Source: an uncultured Gemmatimonadales bacterium (GTDB lineage: Bacteria; Gemmatimonadota; Gemmatimonadetes; Longimicrobiales; RSA9). Taken from it: DNA of 64,000 nucleotides. Of the stretch, positions 2,769 to 63,964 are shown in pieces. The stretch spans positions 233,889 to 297,888 of the forward strand of contig CAWCRS010000009.1 in assembly GCA_963798085.1 (NCBI GenBank), given 5' to 3'. A model generated the notes under the pieces. That model saw only the letters and a program-made list of their open reading frames with translations, ran no database searches and was not told where the DNA came from. Each line of letters starts with the position of its first letter. Position 1 is the first letter of the stretch. The position numbers and the translations under genes were made by a program.

Positions 2769-2809
2769 GTCGATTGCCTCCGTCCGTGGTGCGTATGACG
2801 ATTATTTTG

Positions 2810-2850
2810 ACATCGTCGATTATACCAAGGGTTGCATCCCGCCACCACGC
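2810..2850 (-). promoter_or_regulatory. putative extended -10 promoter (TGgTATAAT) for the permease gene
   Basis: On the minus strand, CCTTGGTATAATCGACG has its TATAAT at 2824..2819 with TG two nt upstream. This is about 50 nt upstream of GTG 2768 and of the GGAGG at 2781..2777. It sits in an AT-rich island in otherwise ~70% GC DNA. The -35 element is poor (TGGTGG). Confidence 0.4.
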
Positions 2851-10739: not shown

Positions 10740-10904
10740 GGAGAATCCAGCCTCGTCTGATGGAAGAATGTCAGCGCAAGATAAAGCCGGCATCCGATCC
10801 GCACAGCAGGCGAGGGACACAACGCCTCCTGCGTTGCACCACTGCCAGCTGCTAGTGCCCGGTTATCAATCCGCGCAACGGAAAAGGGCCGGGACCCAAC
10901 TCGT

Positions 10905-11020
10905 CCCAGCCCCCGGCCCCAGCCCGCCGTTCAGTCCGATCCCGGCCCCAGCCCGAGCCCCAGCCCGCCGTTCATCCGTTCCCGAGCAACCAGCCCCAGC
11001 AACGTCTTCCAGCAGTTCAA
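10905..11020. repeat. GC-rich intergenic repeat family A copy (minus orientation)
   Basis: Two tandem CCCAGCCC..GCCGTTCA units (10905-10940 and 10941-10980) are followed by cccgagcaaccagccccagcaacg. The reverse complement aligns with 25110-25185 (GTTGCyGGGGCTGGTTGCyCGGGAACGrAT.AACGG...GCTGGGGCTCGGGCTGGGG). It abuts the moeZ stop codon. Confidence 0.7.
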
Positions 11021-15410: not shown

Positions 15411-15485
15411 GCCAGCCCGACTCCCAGGGTCGTTCCCAGCAACCAGCCCGAGCCCCAGCCCAAGCGACGCCGTTGCAGTCCGCCT
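15411..15485. repeat. GC-rich intergenic repeat family A copy
   Basis: The sequence gccagcccgactcccagggtcgttcccagcaaccagcccgagccccagcccaagcgacgccgttgcag contains the CAACCAGCCC / GAGCCCCAGCCC / GCCGTTGCA modules shared with 10905-11020 and 25088-25308. Confidence 0.6.
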
Positions 15486-15563: not shown

Positions 15564-17028
15564 GTGGCGATCCCGCAAGGAATCAACGCCTGGAAAGCGA
15601 GCGGAACCGCAGTGCTGACGCTGGGTGGACCCGGGGTCTCGATCCGGCTGGGACACTGGCACGAGCCGGTCGTCTGCGATGGCGAAGACACCCGCCAGAC
15701 AGCGCTCCGCTTCGGGGATCTCGTGGAGGCGACGACGCTGCTTCGCGCCTTCGTCGAAACGCCGCTCGCATGGCAGGGCCTGCGCCAGCTGCTGACTGAA
15801 GCCGCGCCCTCCGAGACTGGCGTCCACGACGTCGCATCGGACAGCGTGCAGCGCGCCGCCGAACTGCTGCTCGAGGGCCGCCTGCAGGCGTTGCGCTGTG
15901 AGCGTGAGTTCTGGGCCGAATCGGTAATTGGCCCGGAGCCACGCCCGGAACCCGAGCCGCCTCGCCCGGCGCCGCCTCCGCCCGGACCCCGGCGCGAGCC
16001 TGCGCCTGTGCTCTCCTTCTACGAGGTGGCACTGCTGGATGAGCTGGAAGCGGGCATTGCCGGCGTGACGCTCGAGCTGAACACGCCGGGCGGCCGGCGC
16101 CAGCTGAAGACGGACGGTTCGGGCAAGGTGCGCATCGACAACGAGCCGCCCGGGCAGGGCACGGCGCGCATTGCCAGCGCCACGCAGCTGGCGCAGGCGC
16201 TGCAGGACCGCCTGTCGCGGCCCGTCCGTAACAAGCCGTTACCAGAACCGGCCAATGACCTCGTGATCGTGACACCCGCGAAGGCAGCGGGCACCGTGTC
16301 GTTCCCTGATGCTCGACCGCAGCGCATCATGATCGTGGCGCGCACCAACGTCGTGTCCGCCACGACGAGTCAGGCGTGGGGCGACCTCGCGCCCGCCGAC
16401 GACGGCGGACCCTGGGATTTCGCGCAGGACCTGTGCAGTCTGCTCAAGCTGTGCTCCACCGGCGAAGGCACCGGCACCGTGATCGGGCAGCGCCCCCTCG
16501 ACCCGCTCGAGCCCCCCGAAGCATCGCCCTCGCCCGACCCGCTGCCCAATACACTCTGGCCTTCGCCGGATACCTGCATCGCACAACCGGACGACACGTT
16601 CGCGACCCTTGCACAGCGTTACCTCGGTGATGCGGAGCGCGGCAGCGAGATCCAGCAGCGGAATCCGCTGCTGGCCGCGCTCGCGCTGTTCGCGCCCATT
16701 CCGCCGGGAACACCCGTGCTGATGCCGTCCGGTTCAATGCCTTCGTTCATGCAGTCCTCGTCGCCAGGCGAATGGCCCGCGGCCGAGGCGGCGCCGCAAT
16801 CGCCCTGGCTCAATGTCGACGTCGAATGCGCTGCACGACGACCTTTTCAACAGCGCGTACGACGCGGTGATCAGCACCTTGAGCGGCGCGCTCGAGGAAC
16901 CGCCGCCGCCGCCCCCGCCGGACTGGCCGCCGCCTGTTGGCGAATCGGTCGAGTTCGCCAACCAAATGCTGGTTCTGGCAATGCAGGGCTACGTGGACTC
17001 ACCCATCGAGCCCGAGGAGCCGGCGTGA
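15564..17028 (+). pseudogene. hypothetical proline-rich protein with C-terminal LysM-like domain, frame changes near 16826
   Basis: Coding frame of ORF 15513..17081. There is no in-frame ATG, so the start is uncertain (candidate GTG at 15564 or 15612). Pro-rich linker EPRPEPEPPRPAPPPPGPRREP. LysM-like CIAQPDDTFATLAQRYLGDAERGSEIQQRNP...IPPGTPVLMP. High third-position GC moves to the frame of ORF 16813..17028 (NALHDDLFNSAYDAV...PPPPPPPDWPPP...EEPA). This is therefore either one frameshifted gene or two genes. Confidence 0.55.
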
Positions 17029-18605: not shown

Positions 18606-21180
18606 TCAGTGCATCGTGGTTTCCTGCGAGGGCAGCCGGGTCTCGGGGAACACGAGTGATCCCTTCTCCAGACTCGCGCCGCGCAGGGCCAGCGCCAGCA
18701 CCTCGCCCAGATCGCGCACCGTGTGGAACTTCATCTGCGCGTGCACCTCGCGCGGCAGATCATCGAGATACGCCTCGTTGTCCTTGGGCAGAATGATTTC
18801 GCGGATCCCGGCACGGTAGGCGCCGAGCACTTTCTCCTTCAGCCCGCCGATGGGCAGCACGCGACCGGTGAGCGTGATTTCGCCGGTCATGGAAACGTCG
18901 CTGCGCACGGGTCGCGCCGACAACGCGGACACGATCGCCGTCGCCATTGTCACGCCCGCCGACGGACCATCCTTGGGAATGGCGCCGGCCGGCACGTGAA
19001 TGTGCAGCTCGACTGTCCTTCAGATTCTCCTCCGGAATGCCCAGCCGGTCGTAATGCGTCTTGGCGTACGTAAGCGCCGCACGCGCGGACTCCTTCATCA
19101 CGTCGCCCAGCTGTCCGGTGAGAATCAGTCCATCGCGGCCCTTGGCCACGCTGGCTTCGACGAACATGATGTCACCGCCCACGGGCGTGTAGAACATGCC
19201 TGTTGCGACGCCCACCATGTCTTCGCCCGCCGCCCGCTCCGGATGGACCCTCGCGCGGCCCAGCAGGTCATCCATGTCAGCTGGTCGATCGTCACGTGCT
19301 CCGACTTCGCCGGCCGCAATGCGACGCGCCGCCTTGCGCGCGACCTTGCCCAGCTCGCGCTCGAGTTGGCGCACGCCGGCTTCGCGCGTGTACTCACTGA
19401 TCACGGTCTCCAGGCGCCGTGTCCGTGACATCGATCTGCTCCTCACCCAGCCCGTTCTCATCGCGCTGGCGAGGAATCAGGTAACGGCGTGCGATCTCCT
19501 TCTTCTCCAGCTCGGTGTAGCCGGTGAACTCGACCGTCTCCATGCGGTCGAGCAGCGGCGCCGGGATCTGATCCCGGTAGTTCGCCGTGGCAATGAACAG
19601 CACCTCGGACAGATCGAACGGCAGACCGAGGTAATGGTCGACGAACGAGTGGTTCTGCGCCGGATCGAGCACCTCGAGCAGTGCCGCCGAGGGATCGCCC
19701 TGCAGACTGACACCGAGCTTGTCGACCTCGTCGAGCAGGAACACGGGATTCTTGGTGGCTGCCTGGCGCAGGCCCTGGATGATGCGGCCCGGCATGGCAC
19801 CCACGTAGGTACGCCGGTGTCCGCGGATGTCGGCTTCATCGCGCGCGCCGCCCAGGGCGATGCGCACGTACTTGCGCGAGAGCGCGCGCGCAATCGACTT
19901 GGCGATGGATGTCTTGCCCACACCCGGCGGTCCCACGAAGAGCAGGATCGGTCCGCGACCCACCGCCTTCGCCTTCGCGCGCACCTCGCTCTTGTGCGAC
20001 CTCCTTCACGCCCTCGCCCTTGCCGAACTCGTCCAGCGGACCAATCTCCTCGGCGCCGCCGTTCTTCGAACTTCGGCGGCGCGACACCTGCGTCTCTTCC
20101 TCCACTTCGACCTTCAGCTTCTCCTCTTCCGCAGCCTCCCTCGCCGCCCGCTCCATCTGGCAGCTTGCGCACGGCCAGGAACTCGAGAATGCGATCCTTC
20201 ACATCTTCGAGACCGTAATGGTCCTCCTCGAGGATGCGCTCGGCTTCGGGCAGATCGATCTTGTCTTCCGTGCGCTCGTTCCAGGGCAGCTCGGCGACCA
20301 GCTCGAGATACGTACGCACCACCTGGTATTCCGCGGACTGCGGGTTCGTGCGCCGCAGTCTGCCCAACTCGCGCTCGATCTCGGTCCTGGCTTCGGGCGG
20401 AAGCTCGAGGGAGTGCAGGCGCTCCTCCAGCTCCTCGATCTCGGAGCCTTCGTCCTCTTCACCCAGCTCTTTCTGAATCGCCTTCATCTGTTCGCGCAGC
20501 ACCATCTCGCGCTGCTTCTCGCCCAGCTCTTCCTGCACCTTCTGCTGGATCTCCTGCTGCGCCTCGAGGCGCACGAGATCGCGCTCCACGCCGACGAGCA
20601 CGCGGCGCATGCGCTCGGGCACGGGAAACAGCTCGAGCAGCTGCTGCTTCTCGCCCGCGGGCATGTCCAGATAGAAGGCGACGAGGTCCGCGAACGCGCC
20701 CGGCTCCTCGACACCCTGTACGATCTGCGCCAGCGCCTCGCGGGGCATGCCGCGACGCCGGCCCAGCTCGACCGCGCGCTCACGCAGCTCGCGATCGAGT
20801 GCGATCACCGCAGGCTCGTACGGCTTCGACGGCTCCTGCGGATCGATGACCCAGATGTCGGCCTCGAGCATGGAATCACCCTTGCGCGTGTACGTAAGGG
20901 CCTTCGCACGCTTTTCGCCGTGAATCAGTACCTGGAGTCCGCCCGTCGAGCGCTGCACCTGCACCACGCGCACGATCACACCCATTTCGTACAGCACTTC
21001 GGGAACGGCCTCGTCTACGTTCTCCCGCTGGCAGGCCGCGAACAGCAGGCGGTCGCCATCGAGCACTTTTTCGATTGCTTCCAGCGTGCCCGGCCGGCCG
21101 GCACTGATAGGAAGCGCCACGCCGGGGAACACGACGGTCTCCCGCATGGGGAGCACGGGCATTTTCAGTCGCTCAGCCAT
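18606..21180 (-). pseudogene. lon: ATP-dependent Lon protease, frame broken at about 20157, 19995, 19415 and 19013, plus a compensated pair at 19276-19308
   Basis: Five consecutive minus-strand ORF pieces. (1) LON N-domain MPVLPMRETVVFPGVALPI... (2) A charged insert. (3) AAA+ core [16 protein letters not shown]...FLLDEVDKL. (4) [19 protein letters not shown]...LTGQLGDVMKESA. (5) Protease domain [23 protein letters not shown]...[20 protein letters not shown]. All motifs are intact, and only the frame changes. Confidence 0.9.
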
Positions 21181-21498
21181 TGTTCTTCTTCAGTTGAAAG
21201 TCCGGTCCCGCCGACACGGCAGTATCCGGATGAGTCTCGACAGCAGGGAGCAGGAATCTTGCCATCCGCGGTGGCTTTTCTTTCACGCGTGTTATTGCTG
21301 GAGATGCACGCGGCGAGGCGCGAAGCCGGGTCGCCGCGGGTTCGAGCGTGAGGCTGGCTGCGCGTCGCGCACGGTGCCGAATGCCGGCCGATTTGGCAAG
21401 GATCGCCGCGCGACTGTCTGCGCGGCAGGCGAGCAGCGGCTCGCGATTCGTGCGGCCGTGAATCGTGACGCAGGAGCGGTCCGTGCAACCGCGCCGCG

Positions 21499-22266
21499 TC
21501 AGCGGATCAGATCGCCGATGCGACTCCAGCGGATGTGATTGAAGAGCGGAATCGGACCCAGTGCGTTACGGTCGTAGGAGAAGTAGAGCACGACGGCCTT
21601 GCCCTTCATCCACGACGGATCGACGAAGCCCCAGTAGCGCGAGTCGAGGCTCTCATCGCGGTTGTCGCCCATGACGAAGTACTTCCCCAGCGGCACGACG
21701 AGCGGGCCCCAGTTGTCGCGCGTGGGCTGATACGTGCGCGGATCGATGGTGTCCGCGAGGTAGCTCGACTGCCAGCCCATCCAGTTGGGTGCGGGTGCGT
21801 CGCCCGTCGGATCGGTGTGCCGCACATAGGGCTCGATTTGAGCCACGCCGTCGATCGATAACACACCGTCCTTCATCGACAGCGTGTCGCCCGGCATGCC
21901 GATGAGTCGCTTCACCAGATCGATCGGCTCGTGGTGCCCGCGGAACACGATGACATCACCGCGCTGCGGATGCGTGTAGCCGGGCAGATGCATGTGCGTG
22001 CCGGGAATGGTCGCGCCGTACGCCGACTTGCTGAGCACGAGGAAGTCACCCACCAGCAGGGTGTTTTCCATCGAACCCGATGTGATGGTGAAGGTCTGGA
22101 TCAGGAAGGTGCGCAGCACGAGGAACAGCACGAAGCCCATCGCCAGCGACTTGGTCCACTCCCACGCCACGTGCCCAATGGTTTGCCGTGCCCCCGCCGC
22201 GGGCGCCGGCTGTCCGGCCGACATTCTGCGTGCCGTGCTGACCCGCCTGCCGCGATTCGTCGCCAT
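21499..22266 (-). CDS. lepB: signal peptidase I
   Basis: Start taken at MATNRGRR (22266). Contains a TM segment, the catalytic-Ser box ITSGSMENTLLVGD, RGDVIVFR, KRLIGMPGD and YFVMGDNRDESLDSRYWGFV. Confidence 0.9.
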   Translation of the reverse strand: MATNRGRRVSTARRMSAGQPAPAAGARQTIGHVAWEWTKSLAMGFVLFLVLRTFLIQTFTITSGSMENTLLVGDFLVLSKSAYGATIPGTHMHLPGYTHPQRGDVIVFRGHHEPIDLVKRLIGMPGDTLSMKDGVLSIDGVAQIEPYVRHTDPTGDAPAPNWMGWQSSYLADTIDPRTYQPTRDNWGPLVVPLGKYFVMGDNRDESLDSRYWGFVDPSWMKGKAVVLYFSYDRNALGPIPLFNHIRWSRIGDLIR

Positions 22267-22465
22267 CCCGTGGCCTCGATCTGCTCTGGAACATGGTCGT
22301 ACGGTCCGCGACGAGCGGGCGCACGCGAAACGATACGCCATAATGCAGATGATGTTTCAAACGCGCGACGCGCAGCGCGATGCTCGGGGCGGGTTGCCTG
22401 CAATCGCGTGCGGGATGGCCAGGGCGGCGAATACGCGTGAATCGTTCCTGGCCTCGGGGGAAAAG

Positions 22466-22775
22466 GGTCAGAGGAGGGGGAGCGTTCAGGGGTCGAGCGC
22501 GGACAAGGGCACCCGTTCAGGGGAGAGGGCGGGGAGCTGTGGCCAGTTCAAATGAACCGTCCTGCTCTCGAGGATTCCGATTTACCCGAACGCAGCCGTG
22601 AGCTGTCGCTGCTTCTCGCATTGTCCGACACGGCGTGAGCAGAGGCGCGCGGGTGACGACTGCCGGCGGCGACGGAATCCGAGCGGGCGGAAAGTGCGGC
22701 CAGCGCACCCACCCCGACCCCTCAACGGGTGCCCGTGCCCGCGCTCGACCTCTGAACCCGACCGCTCCCCTGACC
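22466..22775. repeat. large imperfect inverted repeat (58-nt arms, ~194-nt loop)
   Basis: Arm 22466-22523 (ggtcagaggagggggagcgttcaggggtcgagcgcggacaagggcacccgttcagggg) matches the reverse complement of 22718-22775 at 49 of 58 positions by hand alignment. It lies in a 1.07-kb gene-free interval. Confidence 0.75.
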
Positions 22776-22822
22776 CCGGCCCCTGCGCAGCCGCCACCCA
22801 CCACCATCCAGAAGCCTGCCCG

Positions 22823-22863
22823 AAAAAAACGGGAGGCACCGCCGCGCCTGCGACGATGCCTCC
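22823..22863 (-). terminator. canonical intrinsic terminator with no annotated gene upstream
   Basis: The minus strand reads GGAGGCATCGTCG-CAGGCG-CGGCGGTGCCTCC, a 13-bp stem including two G.U pairs, followed by C G TTTTTTT. It is one of only two hairpin-plus-T-tract terminators I could find in the window. Confidence 0.7.
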
Positions 22864-23130
22864 ATCCCCCTTCTCCCCCACCAACTGTGCCGCATCATGC
22901 GGCGTGCCCACCATTTCCGAACCGAGGGGACACCGTCCTCGGGTGTCCGGCCTCATCACCGGCACGGCGCGCCGTTCTGGTCGGCGCCGCTCGCATGGAG
23001 CGTCTGTCCGTGTCGCCAGGCCCGCGTCGGCGAGGCATACTCCCGTTGGCTCGTGTCCGGACGCGGGTCATTACAAGACCGGTGCCGCTTCCTGCGTGAC
23101 CTGCGGCCAGACCCGGCGCGGGTCGCCTCC
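22864..23130 (-). ncRNA. candidate unannotated structured transcript ending at the 22823-22863 terminator
   Basis: This call is inferred from the orphan terminator, the absence of a plausible ORF, an AT-rich island at 23131-23170 that could hold its promoter, and several local hairpins (GGACACC..GGTGTCC, GCCGCAT.ATGCGGC, CCCGCGTC..GACGCGGG). The 5' end is unknown, and I could not match it to any RNA family by eye. Confidence 0.3.
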
Positions 23131-23170
23131 AGTATTTGTTAAGTAATTTGTATCAAACGATTTAACTGCA
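23131..23170. promoter_or_regulatory. AT-rich island, possible divergent promoter/operator region (hutU side and minus-strand transcript side)
   Basis: The sequence agtatttgttaagtaatttgtatcaaacgatttaactgca is far more AT-rich than its flanks. It lies 243 nt upstream of the hutU ATG and contains TTTG/TTGT motifs and a TTGATA on the minus strand. Confidence 0.3.
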
Positions 23171-23412
23171 TGCGACAACACGGATCCCGGGGCTGCTATG
23201 GCGATGCCGGAGCGGTTGCCAGAGCCTGCCGGCGGGCTTCGCGGCTGGCGTCGTGCAAATACCGTTGCAAAGCGCCATGAAATCCCGGTCCGGGTCCGGG
23301 TCAGCGCGGCACGGTGCCGCGGCGGCGCAGGCAACCGGCCGGGCGGCGGCGTTGCGATTCGGGGAGAGGCCAGCCATTCTCCGCCAACACCTCCTGCCGA
23401 GGAAGAACCGTC

Positions 23413-25087: not shown

Positions 25088-25308
25088 GCGTTGCTGGTTG
25101 CTCGTTGCCGGGGCTGGTTGCCCGGGAACGAATTGAACGGATCCGGAGGCGTTGCTGGGGCTGGGGCTCGGGCTGGGGCTGGGGATTGCATCGTGCGCTT
25201 CGAACACGTGGTTAGGTTACCGTCCGGGCCCCAGAAGCGCGGGTTGATCTGATGAATCCCTTCCCGGGCAACCAGCCCCAGCAACCAGCAACCAGCAACC
25301 AGCAACGC
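25088..25308. repeat. inverted-repeat-bounded GC-rich element (family A) filling the hutU-hutF spacer
   Basis: The left arm gcgttgctggttgctcgttgccggggctggttgcccgggaa (25088-25128) matches the reverse complement of the right arm ttcccgggcaaccagccccagcaaccagcaaccagcaaccagcaacgc (25261-25308). Internally there is a (GCTGGG)n run at 25153-25185, and a (GCAACCA)n run lies in the right arm. Confidence 0.8.
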
Positions 25309-45940: not shown

Positions 45941-46351
45941 TCAGCGCGACACGCCAAAGGTGCCGCGCACACCCACCCCGTTGCTCCACTCGCCCTGCAC
46001 TCTTCCGCCGTTGACCTCGCCGTCCAGCAGCCACTCGTCGCCGCCCGTGCGCTTGAGCCGCAGGTGCACCCGACCATTCGCTGCCGACCCCGTCAGCTCG
46101 CCGCCTGACTGCTCTACGCTCGCCCGGCTACCTACCCTCTTGGACAGGATGAGCCGGTAGTTGCCGCTGACCTGCCCGTTCGCGTCGATCAGCGTGAGGG
46201 TGAGCGCGCCACCATCATAGGCCGGGTGACTCAGCGTGCCCTGCCAGGTCCCGCTCACGTCCGGCTCCGTCTCCGGACCGCTCATGTCCTTGCACGCACC
46301 AGTCACCGCCACCGCCAGCACCAGCATCCACAGATTCCGTCGCGCCCGCAT
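45941..46351 (-). CDS. hypothetical small secreted/lipoprotein
   Basis: 136 aa. MRARRNLWMLVLAVAVTGACKD signal with a Cys, then a beta-rich body (GTWQGTLSHP...GQVSGNYRLIL...). I recognise no family. Confidence 0.6.
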   Translation of the reverse strand: MRARRNLWMLVLAVAVTGACKDMSGPETEPDVSGTWQGTLSHPAYDGGALTLTLIDANGQVSGNYRLILSKRVGSRASVEQSGGELTGSAANGRVHLRLKRTGGDEWLLDGEVNGGRVQGEWSNGVGVRGTFGVSR

Positions 46352-46603
46352 CGGTCGGCTCCTTCGAGAGTAGTCTCAGCGTCTTCTACTCAGAAGGGCG
46401 ACAGAACCCGGGCTCCACCCTCATCGCGGGCAGATCGCGGTGTCCGTGACCGACCGACGGACGGCCAGGAACGGGCGACCGCGTACGCCGGACCCTCCTC
46501 CGCCAGCCTGGCCTCCGCGGCTGCCCGGCCAACTGCTGCCACCGGAAAAGCCGAGTCGCGCTCACTCGTCCCGTGGAACGCAGCCACGCGCTCGTCCAGT
46601 TGT

Positions 46604-46622
46604 CTATAACATAGTGTTATAG
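46604..46622. promoter_or_regulatory. AT-rich perfect palindrome CTATAACA-tag-TGTTATAG (operator-like)
   Basis: 8-bp perfect arms with a 3-nt centre, about 250 nt upstream of the 46351 start on the minus strand. The half-site TAACA/TGTTA resembles the TGACA/TGTyA palindromes in the three repeats at 46693-46897. Confidence 0.45.
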
Positions 46623-46692
46623 GGAGACCGTTCGCGCAACCACGCGGAGATCTCCGCCGGCCGCATTCAGTCCAGGCGAGGACGCCTGCACC

Positions 46693-46897
46693 GGCACTTC
46701 TGACATCGTGTTACAAGCGGGACACGCGCACACGCAACCAGGCAGAGGTCGCCTCACAACGTTCGCGGCAATCCCCAGCCGGTCATCCTGCCGGCACTTC
46801 TGACATCGTGTCATAAGCAGGGAACGTGCACACGCAACCAGGCGGAGACCCAGGCACTTCTGACATCGTGTTACAGGTGCCGCGCACGCACACACAC
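46693..46897. repeat. three direct copies of a ~51-bp unit, each carrying a TGACA-N3-TGTyA palindrome and a (CA/CG)n tract
   Basis: Copy 1 at 46693-46743: ggcacttctgacatcgtgttacaagcgggacacgcgcacacgcaaccaggc. Copy 2 at 46793-46843: ggcacttctgacatcgtgtcataagcagggaacgtgcacacgcaaccaggc. Copy 3 at 46853-46897: ggcacttctgacatcgtgttacaggtgccgcgcacgcacacacac. Start-to-start spacing is 100 and 60 bp. Confidence 0.8.
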
Positions 46898-47130
46898 TAC
46901 TGCCCGATTTCTGGTGGTTCCGTGATTGGGGCAGCGCGTCCTTGACGCAGTCAGCGATTCCTTGCCGCCTTGCCCGGCGCGCGCAGCGCACTCGGCGGTG
47001 AAGCCACCGCAGGGAGGAGCCGGTGGAGGATAGCATCGGCCGGGGCGTGGACGGCGGCGGGCAGCGGCAGGGAGATCGCATCAACGAAGGCGTTGGGTTC
47101 GCGCAGGCGGAGGCTCAGCACGTCGCCCGA

Positions 47131-47682
47131 TCACGAATAGCTCATGAACTTCGACCACGGGGACAGGTAGCCCAGGTTGAGGAGGCCATTCTGGCGCAGC
47201 TCCAGGCGGCTGCGGGCCCGCAGCAGGGCAGCCGTGGCGGCACTGAGCCCCGCGAGATCGAGACCAATGCCGGAAAGACTGAAATCGTGGCCGATGAATT
47301 TGCTGAGTATGTGCCCGCTGATGGACACGCCCAGGAGCACGACGCCGAGCCGAAGGTGCGAGCGCTGCGGCGTCGGGCCGGCATCGAGGAGGAGGGCACC
47401 GGACCCGAGGCGGCGGCGTCGCCATTGCACCAGGTCGCGGGCCTCCAGGACGGCTGCGGCCAAACCGAGCGCGGCACCGAAGCGCTGCAGTACGCCGGGG
47501 GTGATCGTATGGTGGCGGGCCAGCAGGATCCCCGCGAGTACGGCGACGCTGGGCAGCAGCAAGGTCAAGCCCAGGACGACTCTGGCTCGTTTGTTGACGC
47601 GGCGCCAGACGCCTCGCAGAGAAAACGCGAGAGCGCCCGCCATTGCTACCGCCGCAAGCAGCATTACACCCATGTTGTGCAC
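47131..47682 (-). CDS. hypothetical membrane protein
   Basis: 183 aa with four hydrophobic segments (MGVMLLAAVAMAGALAF, VVLGLTLLLPSVAVLAGILL, GAALGLAAAVL, LGVVLLGVSISG) and a soluble tail. I recognise no family. Confidence 0.55.
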   Translation of the reverse strand: MHNMGVMLLAAVAMAGALAFSLRGVWRRVNKRARVVLGLTLLLPSVAVLAGILLARHHTITPGVLQRFGAALGLAAAVLEARDLVQWRRRRLGSGALLLDAGPTPQRSHLRLGVVLLGVSISGHILSKFIGHDFSLSGIGLDLAGLSAATAALLRARSRLELRQNGLLNLGYLSPWSKFMSYS

Positions 47683-47839: not shown

Positions 47840-50258
47840 ATGAACGCGCTGCTGAAGGACCTGCGCTACGGTGCGCGCATGATCCGCAAGACGCCGGGCG
47901 CATCGCTCATCGCGGTCATTGCGCTGGCGCTGGGCATCGGCCTGACCACGCTGATGTTCAGCATCGTGTACGGCGCGCTCATCCGGGGCCTGCCCTTCGA
48001 GCACAGTGAACGCCTGGTCAACATCAACCGCGTGCGCAAGGATCGCGGCAACGTGGGCATTTTCGCGCCCGACTTCGCCGACTGGAGCGCACAGCAGCGC
48101 TCCTTCGAGGAGCTGGGCGCCTACGCCGGCACATCCATCACGCTGTCGAGCGGCGACGCGCCGCGGCGCGTGAGAGGCGCGTACGTGTCAGCCAGCCTGT
48201 TCCGCGTGCTGCGCGTGCATCCACTGATGGGTCGCGTGTTCACGGATGAAGACGACCGGTCCGGCTCACCTGACATGCTGATCATCGGCTACGACGTGTG
48301 GCAGAGTGATTTCGCCGGCGATCCCGGCATCATCGGCAGGTCCGTGCGCATGAACGGCATCGATGCCGTGATCGTCGGCGTCATGCCGCGCGGTTTCGGC
48401 TTCCCCGACACGCAGAGCGCGTGGGTGCCATTGCGCCTGGATCCGGCGCGGACGGAGCGGGGCAGGGGCATGTCGGTGGGCGTCGTGGGCCGGCTGCGGG
48501 CCGCGGTGAGCATGGCGCAGGCGACGGCGGACATGGAGGCCATCGCGCAGCGCCAGGCGAGCGCGTATCCGGTCACGAACCAGGACATCACCGTCAGACT
48601 GCAGACCTCGCAGCAGGCGAGACTGGGCCGGGACGAGCGCACCGTGCTCTACACGATGCTGGGCGCCGTGCTGTTCGTGCTGCTCATTGCCTGCGCCAAT
48701 GTGGCGAATCTGCTGATCGGCAGGGCCATGGTGCGCACGCGCGAGATCGGCGTGCGCACCGCGCTGGGCGCATTCGAAACTGCGTGTGATGAGCCAGTTC
48801 CTCACGGAATCGCTGGCGCTGGCCATCGCCGGTGCCGCCATCGGTGTGGTGATCGCGGCGGTCGGCATCCGCGCGTTCAATGGCGCGATTGCAGGCGTCA
48901 ATCCACCGTTCTGGCTGAAGATCGCGCTGGACACGCCGTCACTGCTCTGTGCCAGCGCCGCCACGGTGCTGGCCACGCTGGCGGCGGGCTCCATTCCCGC
49001 CGTGCAGGCGGCCACCGCGAACACGCACGACATCCTGAAGGATGAGTCGCGCGGCAGCTCGAGCTTCAGACTGGGCAACCTGAGCCGCGTCCTGGTGATG
49101 GCGGAAATGGCGCTGTCGGTCGGGCTGCTCGTAGGTGCCGGCCTCATGATCAAGAGCGTGGTCAAACTGGAAACAATCGATCTCGGCTTCGACGCAAGGC
49201 ACACGCTGAATGCACGCATGATCATGTCCGACACCATCTACAACGACCGCGAGCGCCGCCTGCGCCTGGCCACGGACCTGCTGACACGCGTGTCAGCAAT
49301 GCCGGGTGTCACCGCGGCCACGCTCACCACGTCCGCGCCGGGCATGGGTGGCGGCAGCAACCTCTTCGCACTGGAGGGCGTCACCTACGCCACCGATCGC
49401 GACTACCCGTCGGCGCCCGGCGCCACTATCGCGCCCGGGTTCTTCGCCACGCTGGGCTTCAGGGTCATCGGTGGCCGCGAATTCACGGCGGACGATCGCG
49501 ACGGCACGCTGCCCGTTGTGGTCGTCAATCAGTCGTTCGAGCGACGCTGGTTCCCGGGGCAGAGCGCGCTGGGCAAGCGCCTGCGCTTCGGCACCAACAT
49601 CGCCGGCAACCCGAACCCGTGGATGACGATCGTGGGCGTGGTCCCCGATCTCTATGTCACTGCCGTGGACGAACAGGTGCACGAAGGTCTGTACCGGCCG
49701 ATTGCGCAGGCGGGCCCGCGCGGCCTCACGGTGCTGGCACTGACGCGCGCGAAGCCGGCATCGCTCGTGAATGCGCTGCGCGGCGTCGTCGCCGATGTGG
49801 ATCCCAACCTGGCGCTGGATCAGCTGGGTTCGCTCGAGGAAGTCATCCAGCAGGAGAACTGGTACTACGCCGTGTTCGGTGCGCTGTTCGTCGCGTTCGG
49901 CGGCGCTGCTCTCTTCCTTGCCTCGATCGGGCTGTACGGCGTCATGTCGTTCGCCGTGAGCCGGCGGCGGCGCGAGATGGGTGTGCGCATGGCCGTGGGT
50001 GCGGACGCGCGCGACGTGGTGCGCCTGGTCCTGCGACAGGGCATGACACAAACCGCCATCGGCCTCATTGTGGGAACCGCTTTTGCGCTTTTCGTGTCGA
50101 AACTGCTGGCGGCCATCCTCTTCCAGGTGCAGCCCCGCGATCCGGTGATCTTCGCGTCCATCATTGCAGTACTGCTGCTCACCGCCGTGCTGGCGTGCTG
50201 GATCCCGGCCCTGCGCGCGGCCCGCGTGGACCCCCTGGAAGCTCTGCGCTACGAGTAG
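47840..50258 (+). pseudogene. ADOP-type duplicated FtsX/MacB-like ABC permease, frame broken near 48773
   Basis: ORF 47840..49045 (MNALLKDLRYGARMIRKTPGASLIAVIALALGIGLTT...ACANVANLLIGRAMVRTREIGVRTALGA) continues as SKLRVMSQFLTESLALAIAG... in ORF 48786..50258, ending LEALRYE. One extra base lies in gca t tcg. Confidence 0.85.
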
Positions 50259-57619: not shown

Positions 57620-57727
57620 TGCGTTGGAGTTGCTGAGGCTGGGGCTGGGGCTCGGGCTGGGGACGAATTGAAATGCGTTGCCTGGGGGCTGGTTGCTGGG
57701 GCTGGTTGCTCGGGAACGGCAGCAACG
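57620..57727. repeat. family A GC-rich repeat block (left boundary of the intra-operon spacer)
   Basis: The sequence gcgttggagttgctgaggctggggctggggctcgggctggggacgaattgaaatgcgttgcctgggggctggttgctggggctggttgctcgggaacggcagcaacgg shares its modules and the GAATTGAA linker with 25110-25185. Confidence 0.75.
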
Positions 57728-58337
57728 GATACAGCGTGCAGCTGCCCTGGTAGGGCTGGCACGGGGGACGGACTGCATGCGTTTGCGGCGGCTGGTTGCT
57801 CCACGGCATCAACGGAAACCGCCCGCACGGAGTTGTTCGGGATGCTGTCTGGGAATGGCGCGGCAGGCTGCCGCCGTCTACGCCATCGACGTTCGCACGA
57901 AGCGGCGACCAGAGCCATGCTGCCCATGGAAAGCACTGGATTGAGGCTCGACAGCAGCGGGTGGTCTTGCGACAGGCGCCGGGCCGCGGGGTGGGACCGG
58001 GGCGGAAATCGAGACGCGTCGCGGGCGAAGGGTGGGACAACATTGGCTTGCACTGCAGGGCCGTTGCCCGGGAGCACCCGGGAACATCGTGGAGGTGGCG
58101 GACGCGACCTGCGCACGCCTGCACCGAATTCTGTGTTAGTACGATGATCGAGGTTCAGGCCGTGGATCGGTGGCCCGCGCACGCCGGGCAGACCCTGAAC
58201 GCGTCGAGGGGGAACCGTTTGAGAAAGGTCGAACCGCGGCGCCGGTTTTCTTCCGTCGGGGCGCGACAGCGCGTGCGCGACACCCGCCTCACGGCAGCCG
58301 TGCGCAATCGTGCAGAGGGCGCGGGAGCCGCGCTGTT

Positions 58338-58462
58338 TCCCAGCCCCGGTCCCGAGGTCAGCCCCGGCCCCGGCGCCAGTGCCAGCCCCAGCCCGGGGCA
58401 GGCCGTCCAGTCCGTCTTGCCATACCCGGGCAACCAGCCCCGGCAACGAGTTCCAGCAACGA
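58338..58462. repeat. family A GC-rich repeat block, inverted (right boundary of the intra-operon spacer)
   Basis: ...cccagccccggtcccgaggtcagccccggccccggcgccagtgccagccccagcccgggg...cccgggcaaccagccccggcaacgagttccagcaacgac. Its reverse complement, gttgctggaactcgttgccggggctggttgcccggg, is nearly identical to 25091-25126. Confidence 0.75.
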
Positions 58463-60816: not shown

Positions 60817-60950
60817 CCGGACCGTCCTGGCATTCTCGCGTTCCGGCCGCGTGCGCTATCGAAGCATGCGGCTTCGCGCCGCAAACGGCGTGTTACAGGA
60901 CACACGCATGGCGGTACCGGCCACAACCCAAGATTTCAAAGACGGTCCGG
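60817..60950. repeat. second, shorter and degenerate copy of MITE-like family B
   Basis: The left end ccggaccgtcctggcattctcgcgtt resembles the left end at 45676. The right end ggccacaacccaagatttcaaagacggtccgg (to 60950) matches 45905-45936 at about 80% over ~50 nt. As in the first copy, it ends 4 nt before the TGA of a minus-strand gene (modC). Confidence 0.6.
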
Positions 60951-62783: not shown

Positions 62784-62958
62784 GGGTGCGGTCGCCCGGC
62801 TGACAGTGTGTTATGGAAGCCGCGGCGTGACGCTTCACGTGCCGATTCGACCTGGAAGGCTGCTTGCGGCGCCGGCGCGTCCGCGCCTGCTGTGGCTGCC
62901 GTGACGACCCATTCGCCGGTTGCCGGGTCACGTGGCCTGGCTCTGCAGAACGCGTGCA

Positions 62959-63964
62959 TCAGCGGGTGCCGTACCCGAACGATTCGATGAGCCGCCTGGC
63001 CACGTCGCCGCGCAGGAAGTCCAGGTACGCGCGCGCCGCGGGATGGTCGCGGCCGGGCAGGAGCAGGACCGCGTCCTGCGCAAGGGGCTCATGGTACTCG
63101 GCGGGCACCAGCCAGTACGTGTGCTCCGGCTCGTGGATTACCTGCGACCACGCGACGAAGCCCAGCTCCGCCGCGCCCGACTTCACGAACTGCAGCGTCT
63201 GCGTGAGGCTCTCGCCGCGCACGAGGCGGGCGGCAATCGCATCGTACAGACCCAGAATGCCGCAGCACCTGCATGGCCGCCACACCGTAGGGCGCCGTCT
63301 CCGGGTTGGCGATGGCAATGTGGCGAAACCGCCCGCTGCGCAGATCCTCGCCGGCCGCGCGGACGGAATCGAGCGACGGGCCGTACAGCGCGAGTCGCCC
63401 GACCGCGTACGTGAAACGCGAGCCCGCCACCGCGTAGCCATCACGCTCCAGCAGCGCGGGCCGCTCGCTGTCCGCCGACAGGAACACGTCGAAGGGGGCA
63501 CCGTTGCGCGCCTGCGCGTAGAGCAGCCCGCTCGAGCCCACGCTGCTCACCACACGCTGGCCCGATCCCGCCCTGAACTTCGCCGCCAGCTGCTCCTGCA
63601 CCACTGCGAAATTCGCGGCCACCGCCACTCTCACCTCTGCGGCCACCGCCACCCTCACCTCTGCGGCCACCGCCACCCTCACCTCTGACGACTCGCGCGC
63701 TCCCGCGTATGCGTGAGCGCGCGTACCCGGACCGTCGCGCCGTCCGGCGCCCGATGTGCCGAGCCCGAGCAGCAGCAGGAACACGCTGTGCCGCGCAGCA
63801 GCGCGCCCGCAGCGGAAGGTCGCGCGGACAGAGGTGGACACGGCTGCAGCGACACGGGCCGGCGCGCAGGCGGAGAGCCCAGCCGCGCGCGCCCGGGCGC
63901 GGCCTGACAGGCTGCCAGGCGGCCGGCGGCGGCGCCACGCGCGGATTCCTGCTGCCGCCATCAC
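62959..63964 (-). pseudogene. modA: molybdate-binding periplasmic protein, frame broken near 63262, with an in-frame 3 x 24-bp tandem repeat near the signal peptide
   Basis: VAVAANFAVVQEQLAAKFRAGSGQRVVSSVGSSGLLYAQARNGAPFDVFLSAD...IANPETAPYGVAAMQVL (ORF 63089..63964) continues as LGLYDAIAARLVRGESLTQTLQFVKSGAAELGFVAWSQV... (ORF 62959..63501). The true start is uncertain. Confidence 0.8.
63615..63686. repeat. perfect-frame tandem triplication of a 24-bp unit inside modA
   Basis: GCGGCCACCGCCAC(T/C)CTCACCTCT occurs three times (63615-63638, 63639-63662, 63663-63686). On the coding strand it encodes (EVRVAVAA)x3. Confidence 0.85.

Follow-up and report, generated by a model that had tools for sequence, protein, structure and literature searches.

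Four dyad-bearing tandem repeats between two envelope-protein genes of a Gemmatimonadota bacterium, tentatively read as an operator array

A cluster of short palindromes and direct repeats lies between two minus-strand genes of an uncultured Gemmatimonadales bacterium, and the question is what it is there for. The whole stretch of DNA analysed, 64,000 nucleotides in length, is called the window. The sequence-only reading had offered two answers, an array of four dimer-binding operators or a family of small repeated transcripts. Repeat analysis showed that positions 46600-46907 consist of four contiguous head-to-tail units (U0-U3) of 91, 100, 60 and at least 57 bp. The features of the locus are as follows.

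45941-46351, minus strand: lipoprotein gene (136 aa) with a strong SD, AAGGAG; downstream neighbour of the array
46352-46423, minus strand: promoter-proximal leader of the lipoprotein gene, conserved in the relative L091
46368-46391: hairpin GAGTAG...CTACTC inside the lipoprotein leader, just upstream of the SD
46600-46690, plus strand: unit U0, the diverged fourth copy, with a palindrome, a GCAACCA box and a further palindrome
46604-46622: perfect 19-bp palindrome CTATAACAtagTGTTATAG of U0 (arms 8/8; 8/9 as a 9-3-9 dyad at 46603-46623)
46636: GCAACCA box of U0, followed by the palindrome GCGGAGATCTCCGC
46691-46790, plus strand: unit U1, 100 bp, with the invariant 19-mer at 46693-46711
46697-46717: U1 dyad CTTCTGACA-tcg-TGTTACAAG, 7/9 matched
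46722-46736: alternating tract of U1, with GCAACCAGGC at 46734
46791-46850, plus strand: unit U2, 60 bp
46797-46817: U2 dyad CTTCTGACA-tcg-TGTCATAAG, 8/9 matched
46824-46836: alternating tract of U2, with GCAACCAGGC at 46834
46851 to about 46907, plus strand: unit U3, with a 25-27-nt core common to U1, U2 and U3
46853-46881: 29-bp U3 dyad GGCACTTCTGACA-tcg-TGTTACAGGTGCC, 13-3-13 (GGCAC...GTGCC), 10/13 matched per arm
46881-46897: (CG/CA)n tract of U3; the rest of U3 is diverged from U1 and U2
46951-47682, minus strand: DUF5673-family membrane-protein gene; upstream neighbour of the array
62800-62817, plus strand: isolated site with the same core, CTGACAgtgTGTTATGG, about 16 kb from the array

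The repeats and their dyad symmetry were observed directly. The repeat finder agreed with the three direct repeats noted earlier at 46693, 46793 and 46853 (spacing 100 and 60 bp) and returned them as a 57-nt direct family at 46691, 46791 and 46851, the later copies being 88% and 68% identical to copy 1. U2 corresponded to U1 minus its last 40 bp. Downstream of the U0 palindrome, CGCAACCACGCGGAG was present as in U1 and U2 (81% over 21 nt, the offset differing by 4 nt); since this box is shared on the 3' side, the 19-bp palindrome heads a fourth, older copy of the unit. Every unit began with the dyad; behind it came a GCAACCA box, a CA/CG tract or both. A second small repeat family, CGCAACCA(C/G)GC(G/A)GAG, trailed the U0 palindrome and copies 1 and 2. 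Of the intergenic repeats of this genome, the (GCAACCA)n/(GCTGGG)n family had only 8 nt in common with the array. The low GC content remarked on earlier proved modest (60% in the array versus 68% in the window), and only U0 was strongly A+T-rich, its palindrome having a GC content of 26% in a genome of 68%.

Analysis of the flanking genes changed the extent of the spacer, which had been given as 780 bp. The membrane-protein gene contains an in-frame TGA at 47131-47133, aligned with a tryptophan that was invariant in 8 of 8 homologues. Past the TGA, 59 in-frame codons aligned with the C-termini of the homologues, all of which carried 46-57 extra C-terminal residues relative to the TGA-ended product, and the frame stayed open to a stop at 46951. 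Because the frame runs on to 46951, the true non-coding spacer is about 600 bp (46352-46950), and U3 lies approximately 45 bp beyond the actual membrane-protein stop. TGA was the commonest genuine stop codon in the window (19 of 30), and the TGA at 47131-47133 was therefore attributed to a nonsense mutation or a base error, not to recoding. The Lon, ADOP and ModA genes are split as well, either as real pseudogenes or through assembly errors. A 56-codon frame at 46951-47121 had been a candidate RHH protein; it gave no family match, a low-confidence model and no fold match, and since the homologue C-termini align with it, it is the C-terminal part of the membrane protein and not a DNA-binding protein.

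By sequence comparison, both flanking genes are near-orphans. A full HMMER scan returned remote homologues of the membrane protein (27-37% identity; DUF5673 in 7 of 8), with none above about 35% identity among 1.8 billion representatives. The neighbours of the array encode the lipoprotein, the DUF5673 membrane protein and an ADOP permease. There was no transcription-factor gene adjoining the array, the nearest HTH gene being that of an HTH_17-PTS_EIIA protein 3.5 kb off. The array lies 250-555 bp upstream of the lipoprotein start codon. In the relative L091, conservation of the spacer was limited to the leader at 46352-46423, which ends 180 bp short of the array.

The spacer was devoid of coding signals. 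No codon-position GC signal was found across 46352 to about 46950. A 155-codon minus-strand frame over the array was rejected as coding (flat GC of 0.65/0.63/0.68, no family match). A coding role of the repeats and of the small ORFs was rejected too: copies 1 and 2 lie in different frames, and the ORFs that start inside the units are mutually inconsistent. Within the units, no SD preceded an ATG or GTG, and no GC3 signal was seen. Signals of known RNAs were likewise absent: no match to Rfam 15 reached the gathering score anywhere in the window, and relaxed scanning of 46300-47200 yielded chance-level matches only (E 2.7-9).

The dyads were beyond chance. All four units contained the consensus half-site CYTnTRACA with a 3-bp centre, the full motif being CYTnTRACA-N3-TGTYAnARG. 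The 19-bp palindrome had been described as having the half-site geometry of the repeats, which was borne out: TRACA-N3-TGTYA occurred five times in the 64-kb window versus 0.05 expected, and four of the five sites fell within a 260-bp cluster. With as many as 3 mismatches allowed, the core 21-mer was found in three places only, versus 0.00 in shuffles. Perfect 8-N3-8 palindromes of any composition were as frequent as expected (2.5 expected, 2 seen, the second being G+C-rich at 16654); with at least 6 A/T pairs per arm, only 0.002 would be expected per window. The dyads described earlier were present, with TGACAtcgTGTCA perfect in copy 2 and TGTTA in copies 1 and 3, but their real extent is longer, 9-3-9 in U1 and U2 and 13-3-13 in U3.

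The symmetry also persisted across diverged copies. U0 and U2 differ as TAACA/TGTTA and TGACA/TGTCA, a change on both arms that preserves the dyad, and the right arms of U1, U2 and U3, which are not copies of their left arms, nonetheless match them. Conservation along the unit, again a direct observation, was uneven. In the U1-U3 alignment 34 of 57 columns were invariant, and 19 of these formed one unbroken block, GGCACTTCTGACATCGTGT, at the dyad end, a run reached in only 9 of 100,000 column permutations; outside this block, differences among U1-U3 numbered 7-22. The block is asymmetric about the dyad: it takes in the left flank, the left arm and the centre but just the first 3 nt of the right arm. 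The alternating tracts noted earlier were present, but their Z-DNA potential does not mark the locus: the window held 45 alternating purine-pyrimidine runs of at least 12 nt, and alternation is therefore a habit of the genome.

The repeat array is real, statistically solid and lineage-specific, and it matches no named family. The exact 19-mer had no match in the GTDB representative genomes or in viral contigs; its nine matches in JGI metagenomes were chance occurrences throughout, in DNA that was unrelated, lower in GC and in part coding. In 80 loci related through the PD40-amidohydrolase gene (1.05 Mb; best 75% amino acid identity), there were no TRACA-N3-TGTYA sites and no homologue of the lipoprotein or membrane-protein gene. 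The best matches of this PD40-amidohydrolase neighbour, at 66-75% identity, came from Gemmatimonadota and Longimicrobiales MAGs. Three contigs carried distant lipoprotein orthologues (62-64% identity), and the regions upstream of them were without the array or the motif; among the best non-self orthologues, upstream regions differed from the window and among themselves. The sequence-only reading would have counted against itself an absence of the repeats from related genomes. The array was indeed absent there, yet this is uninformative because the neighbouring protein is only about 63% identical in the nearest available relatives.

In one of the relatives, L090, a PadR gene stands beside the orthologous lipoprotein gene and is preceded by its own palindrome cluster, CTTCCTATGGG-ttt-CCCATAAGGAAG, with a 3-bp centre. 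PadR genes in the related loci were too few for deriving an operator rule, and a tblastn search for a lost PadR gene in the spacer found no gene or remnant in the window. Operators of the BlaI/CopY type read TACA-N2-TGTA, with a GAC-N5-GTC core for M. tuberculosis BlaI, and go together with a BlaI/BlaR1 gene pair; no Penicillinase_R protein was found among the window proteins scanned. A literature search on the motif returned steroid-receptor response elements only, and for Gemmatimonas operators it returned nothing.

We tentatively prefer to read the array as an operator array for one dimeric DNA-binding protein, multiplied by tandem duplication, a reading that falls somewhat short of an even chance. 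The dyads would be candidate recognition sites for one dimeric, sequence-specific protein encoded elsewhere. Three features, namely symmetry kept across diverged copies, conservation at the dyad end and weak RNA stems, together suggest that a symmetric protein, probably a dimer, reads the double-stranded DNA. The stems of U1 and U2 were no better than shuffles, which favours read-out at the DNA level. The head-to-tail layout indicates that the sites were multiplied by tandem duplication, so that an ancestral unit of about 95-100 bp with one site may have become a degenerate tandem array of four. Constraint would act on the unit's 5' end, which is an A+T-rich dyad 19-29 bp long, and the best dyads, the outer ones of U0 and U3, would flank two weaker ones.

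Protein binding, the target gene and the mode of action are what we infer from this arrangement. Cooperative occupancy, looping or a roadblock might modulate transcription running through the spacer in the direction of the lipoprotein gene. The dyads of U0 and U3 are 254 bp apart, equal to 24.2 helical turns, a spacing that would suit cooperative binding or looping. The array appears to fit a known kind, the multi-site protein-binding arrays made by tandem duplication. Like lambda OR1-3/OL1-3, lac O1-O3 and the MexR boxes, it has several dyad sites of 17-21 bp within a few hundred non-coding bp, and the sites are unequal in quality, with the strongest at the edges. In contrast to those systems, the sites here are embedded in longer duplicated units (57-100 bp) with an asymmetric conserved block, and they have neither an overlapping promoter consensus nor a regulator gene next to them. 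The cluster of L090, a different one with several palindromes and likewise a 3-bp centre, would speak for operators.

The four-operator proposal of the sequence-only reading is partly supported and fits best, given the symmetric half-sites, the conservation at the dyad end and the weak RNA stems. Several observations count against the operator array. A symmetric dimer site would not predict the asymmetric block, which recent gene conversion or an asymmetric ligand would predict. The dyad centres are 94, 100 and 60 bp apart, distances that do not all keep helical phase; the array has no adjoining regulator gene and no overlapping promoter consensus, it is separated by 180 bp from the conserved lipoprotein leader, and it is absent from every relative examined (the neighbouring protein being only about 63% identical in the nearest of them).

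Hardly any regulatory site of the Gemmatimonadota has been mapped by experiment. Should the dyads prove to be operators, they would define the binding motif of a regulator of this phylum and serve as a clean bait for finding it. The locus would exemplify a multi-site regulatory region built by tandem duplication. It is otherwise ordinary, flanking two poorly conserved envelope-protein genes, and gives no hint of a new type of system.

The main rival, a fairly unlikely one, is a functionless minisatellite: an intergenic segment of 95-100 bp, holding a palindrome by chance, would have been duplicated through replication slippage or unequal crossing-over; the identical 19-27-nt core would then stem from recent duplication or gene conversion and not from selection. 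Like the MIRU/VNTR minisatellites of high-GC bacteria, the array has tandem units of 40-100 bp and variable length between co-directional genes. The head-to-tail order, the derivation of U2 from U1 by loss of its end, the slippage-like variation of the (CA/CG)n tracts among units, the occurrence of other intergenic simple-repeat families in the genome and a lineage-specific position in a spacer between near-orphan genes all agree with this, as does the failure to find promoter, terminator or RNA-family signals. However, divergence along the units is strongly non-uniform, and the A+T-rich dyad is preserved, which sets the array apart from MIRU/VNTR loci. U0, old and otherwise diverged, has kept and even perfected this dyad; U3 gained the outer arms GGCAC/GTGCC independently; and the double change between U0 and U2 leaves the symmetry intact.

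Quite unlikely is a set of plus-strand tandem promoter or small-RNA modules. Here GTGTTAYARG would be an extended -10 (TGnTAnnnG), and the dyad would serve each promoter as its operator. With start points 6-8 nt further downstream, in the CA-rich tract, as many as four short RNAs would be made, antisense to the genes on either side. The pattern TGnTA(Y)A(R)G was present in all four units at the same position and on the plus strand only. An unrelated site at 60890, GTGTTACAGG followed by ACACACGCA, showed the same combination of a -10 and a CA-rich start in a convergent intergenic region, and the G:T difference of U1 and U3 would pair as a G:U wobble only if the RNA comes from the plus strand. 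By pattern, no sigma-70-type promoter, ECF-type promoter or intrinsic terminator was found in the spacer, in a phylum whose promoters are poorly known. A relaxed promoter scan returned only the extended -10-like TGnTAYARG of the units and TGCTATCCT at 47035 (minus strand). The sigma-54 element (GG-N10-GC, TGGCAC-N5-TTGCW) had no match in the spacer with up to 2 mismatches, and the TGACA after GGCAC comes 3 nt too early for that pattern.

The -10-like hexamers of these modules are without T at position -7, and no -35 accompanies them; a clear promoter of this genome, TGGTATAAT at 2814-2822, is canonical. Terminators, Rfam families and a regional fold signal were all wanting, with neither strand of the region folding significantly better than shuffled sequence (z -1.6 and -1.5), and U2 leaves just 60 bp ahead of the next unit. 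The array resembles the tandem sRNA arrays LhrC1-5, PrrF1/2 and OmrA/B in its co-oriented intergenic units, each with a conserved 5' box, but differs from them in that promoters and terminators are not recognisable, a conserved structured RNA body is lacking and the shortest unit has only 60 bp. Only an extended -10-like TGnTAYARG speaks for the earlier suggestion of small repeated transcripts, no -35 and no terminator having been found.

An RNA-level element was judged very unlikely. The array would then lie in the 3' UTR of the membrane-protein gene or in a long lipoprotein leader, its four hairpins with the same A-UNG-U loop acting as processing, stability or protein-titrating sites. The proximity of the true stop of the upstream gene to U3 agrees with it, as does the possible extended -10 at 47035, which could drive read-through. 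The hairpins of U0 (z -3.4 to -5.2) and U3 (-12.5 kcal/mol, z -3.7) beat shuffles, but those of U1 and U2 (-3.6 and -5.1 kcal/mol; z +0.28 and -0.72) did not on either strand, and the whole-region fold was not significant. The stems, at -3.6 to -7.8 kcal/mol, would be A+U-rich triloop hairpins in an organism of 68% GC.

Protein-binding repeats of a mobile or replicative element have only a slight chance, whether as a Tn7- or Mu-like end, as iterons of an integrated replicon, as recombinase arm sites or as a dispersed REP/MITE repeat. Elements of the Tn7 or Mu type have multi-site ends with irregularly spaced transposase sites, several direct sites at one end and inverted copies at the other, with transposase genes inside. 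The three direct, asymmetric 19-nt sites at irregular spacings of 60-100 bp recall such ends, and a possible fifth site lies 16 kb away. However, no inverted copy with up to 3 mismatches and no inverted partner end was found in the window (46 kb leftward, 17 kb rightward), and there was no transposase, integrase or Rep gene among the window genes, no transposase turning up among the scanned proteins. An inverted repeat related to direct repeats, as U0 is to U1-U3, is typical of iteron replicons. Iteron origins have direct repeats of 17-22 bp about 22 bp apart, a rep gene, an A+T-rich unwinding element and DnaA boxes; the spacing here was 100 and 60 bp, no rep gene was found, and DnaA boxes were at chance level in the window, with none in the spacer and no cluster. 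REP/BIME repeats are G+C-rich imperfect palindromes of 20-40 nt with many dispersed copies and alternating orientation in clusters, and were rejected, the dyads here being A+T-rich, the units co-oriented and the 64 kb holding one cluster and one marginal site. There was no match in plasmid, phage or viral collections (blastn against plasmids and phages; viral contigs) and no exact copy of the 19-mer in GTDB representative genomes.

The chance is just as slight that the array is a chromosomal loading or titration platform, either with sopC-like nucleating repeats or as a transcript whose four A-UNG-U loops sequester an RNA-binding protein. In the sopC locus of the F plasmid a 43-bp unit is repeated 12 times in tandem, and SopB binds the 7-bp inverted repeat that every unit contains. 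The array shares with sopC the head-to-tail units with one short inverted repeat each, which in sopC is the protein-binding core. It differs in having three to four units of unequal length on the chromosome, with no parA/parB-type genes nearby and no parS consensus. Such a platform, if true, would be confined to one Gemmatimonadota lineage and be without a described counterpart in the phylum.

Similarity between the flanks of the isolated site at 62800-62817 and the units was borderline, its score being reached by 3 to 54 of 300 shuffles, and because this similarity is marginal, a small regulon cannot be affirmed. The site lies in the interval that separates the modA-like from the modB-like gene, and the modB-like gene, which encodes an ABC permease, starts 17 bp downstream of it.

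A hairpin (GAGTAG...CTACTC, 46368–46391) was located in the minus-strand mRNA directly 5' of the Shine-Dalgarno (SD) sequence of the lipoprotein gene. The upstream region of the orthologue at L091, a locus from a relative, carried an identical stem, while the corresponding position of L090, the locus of another relative, had AATGA...TCATT instead, which looks like a compensatory replacement. At L090, a PadR regulator gene adjoined the lipoprotein orthologue. Repeated palindromes were found 5' of this PadR gene at L090 340–400 (window orientation), namely TTTCCCATAGG and CTTCCTATGGG-ttt-CCCATAAGGAAG, with the latter overlapping the SD of the PadR gene; the palindromes are probably the autoregulatory operator of PadR.

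The DUF5673-type membrane-protein gene contained an in-frame TGA at 47131–47133 (minus strand), at a position which the alignment showed to be an invariant Trp in all eight of the eight remote homologues. Past the TGA, the frame held 59 more alignable codons (46951–47130, minus strand), down to 46951. This TGA is a nonsense mutation, pseudogene or base-call error. Three other genes in the window were split.

Split genes
18606–21180: Lon protease, split across frames (Lon_C, 18606–18995; AAA, 19394–19984; N-domain, 19477–21180)
47840–50258: ADOP/MacB-like permease, split across frames in two overlapping ORFs
62959–63964: ModA-like solute-binding protein, split, with profile positions 1–129 and 127–226 in different frames

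In all, four genes (Lon, the ADOP/MacB-like permease, the ModA-like protein and the DUF5673-type membrane protein) were broken within 64 kb, which suggests either indel errors in the assembly or a genome in decay. A 24-bp tandem repeat of about three copies, GCGGCCACCGCCACCCTCACCTCT, was also present at 63601–63687, within the split ModA-like gene, in its N-terminal region.

Parts of the array unit were resembled at two isolated sites.

Isolated look-alikes of the array unit
62800–62817: CTGACAgtgTGTTATGG, with a modA-like gene on one side and a modB-like gene on the other
60890–60908: GTGTTACAGGacacacgca, in the convergent spacer past a modC-like gene

Blocks of (GCTGGG)n / GCTGGTTGC, together with the complementary (GCAACCA)n / CCCCAGC, made up a separate intergenic repeat family.

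Window sites of the GCTGGG/GCAACCA family
20–50
10900–11005
15430–15470
25089–25305
57620–57800
58385–58460

The blocks frequently formed inverted pairs directly past stop codons, and 16 of the 18 GCAACCA/TGGTTGC 7-mers were non-coding. The G-runs match the sequence pattern of a putative G-quadruplex. GCAACCA was present once per unit in U0, U1 and U2, the first three units of the array.

Cumulative GC skew reached its minimum at about 20000–23300, where gene orientation flipped from mainly minus-strand (up to 22.3 kb) to plus-strand (from 23.3 kb). Upstream of the urocanase gene lay a 970-bp spacer that included an A+T-rich patch (23130–23175). Neither a DnaA-box cluster nor parS was found; therefore, a replication origin was not supported.

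A canonical extended −10 promoter, TGGTATAAT, was located at 2796–2825 (minus strand) within a 64-bp divergent spacer (2768–2832), adjoining an inverted repeat (GACGAT...ATCGTC). As judged from this putative promoter, −10 elements of the ordinary sigma-70 type are in use in this organism.
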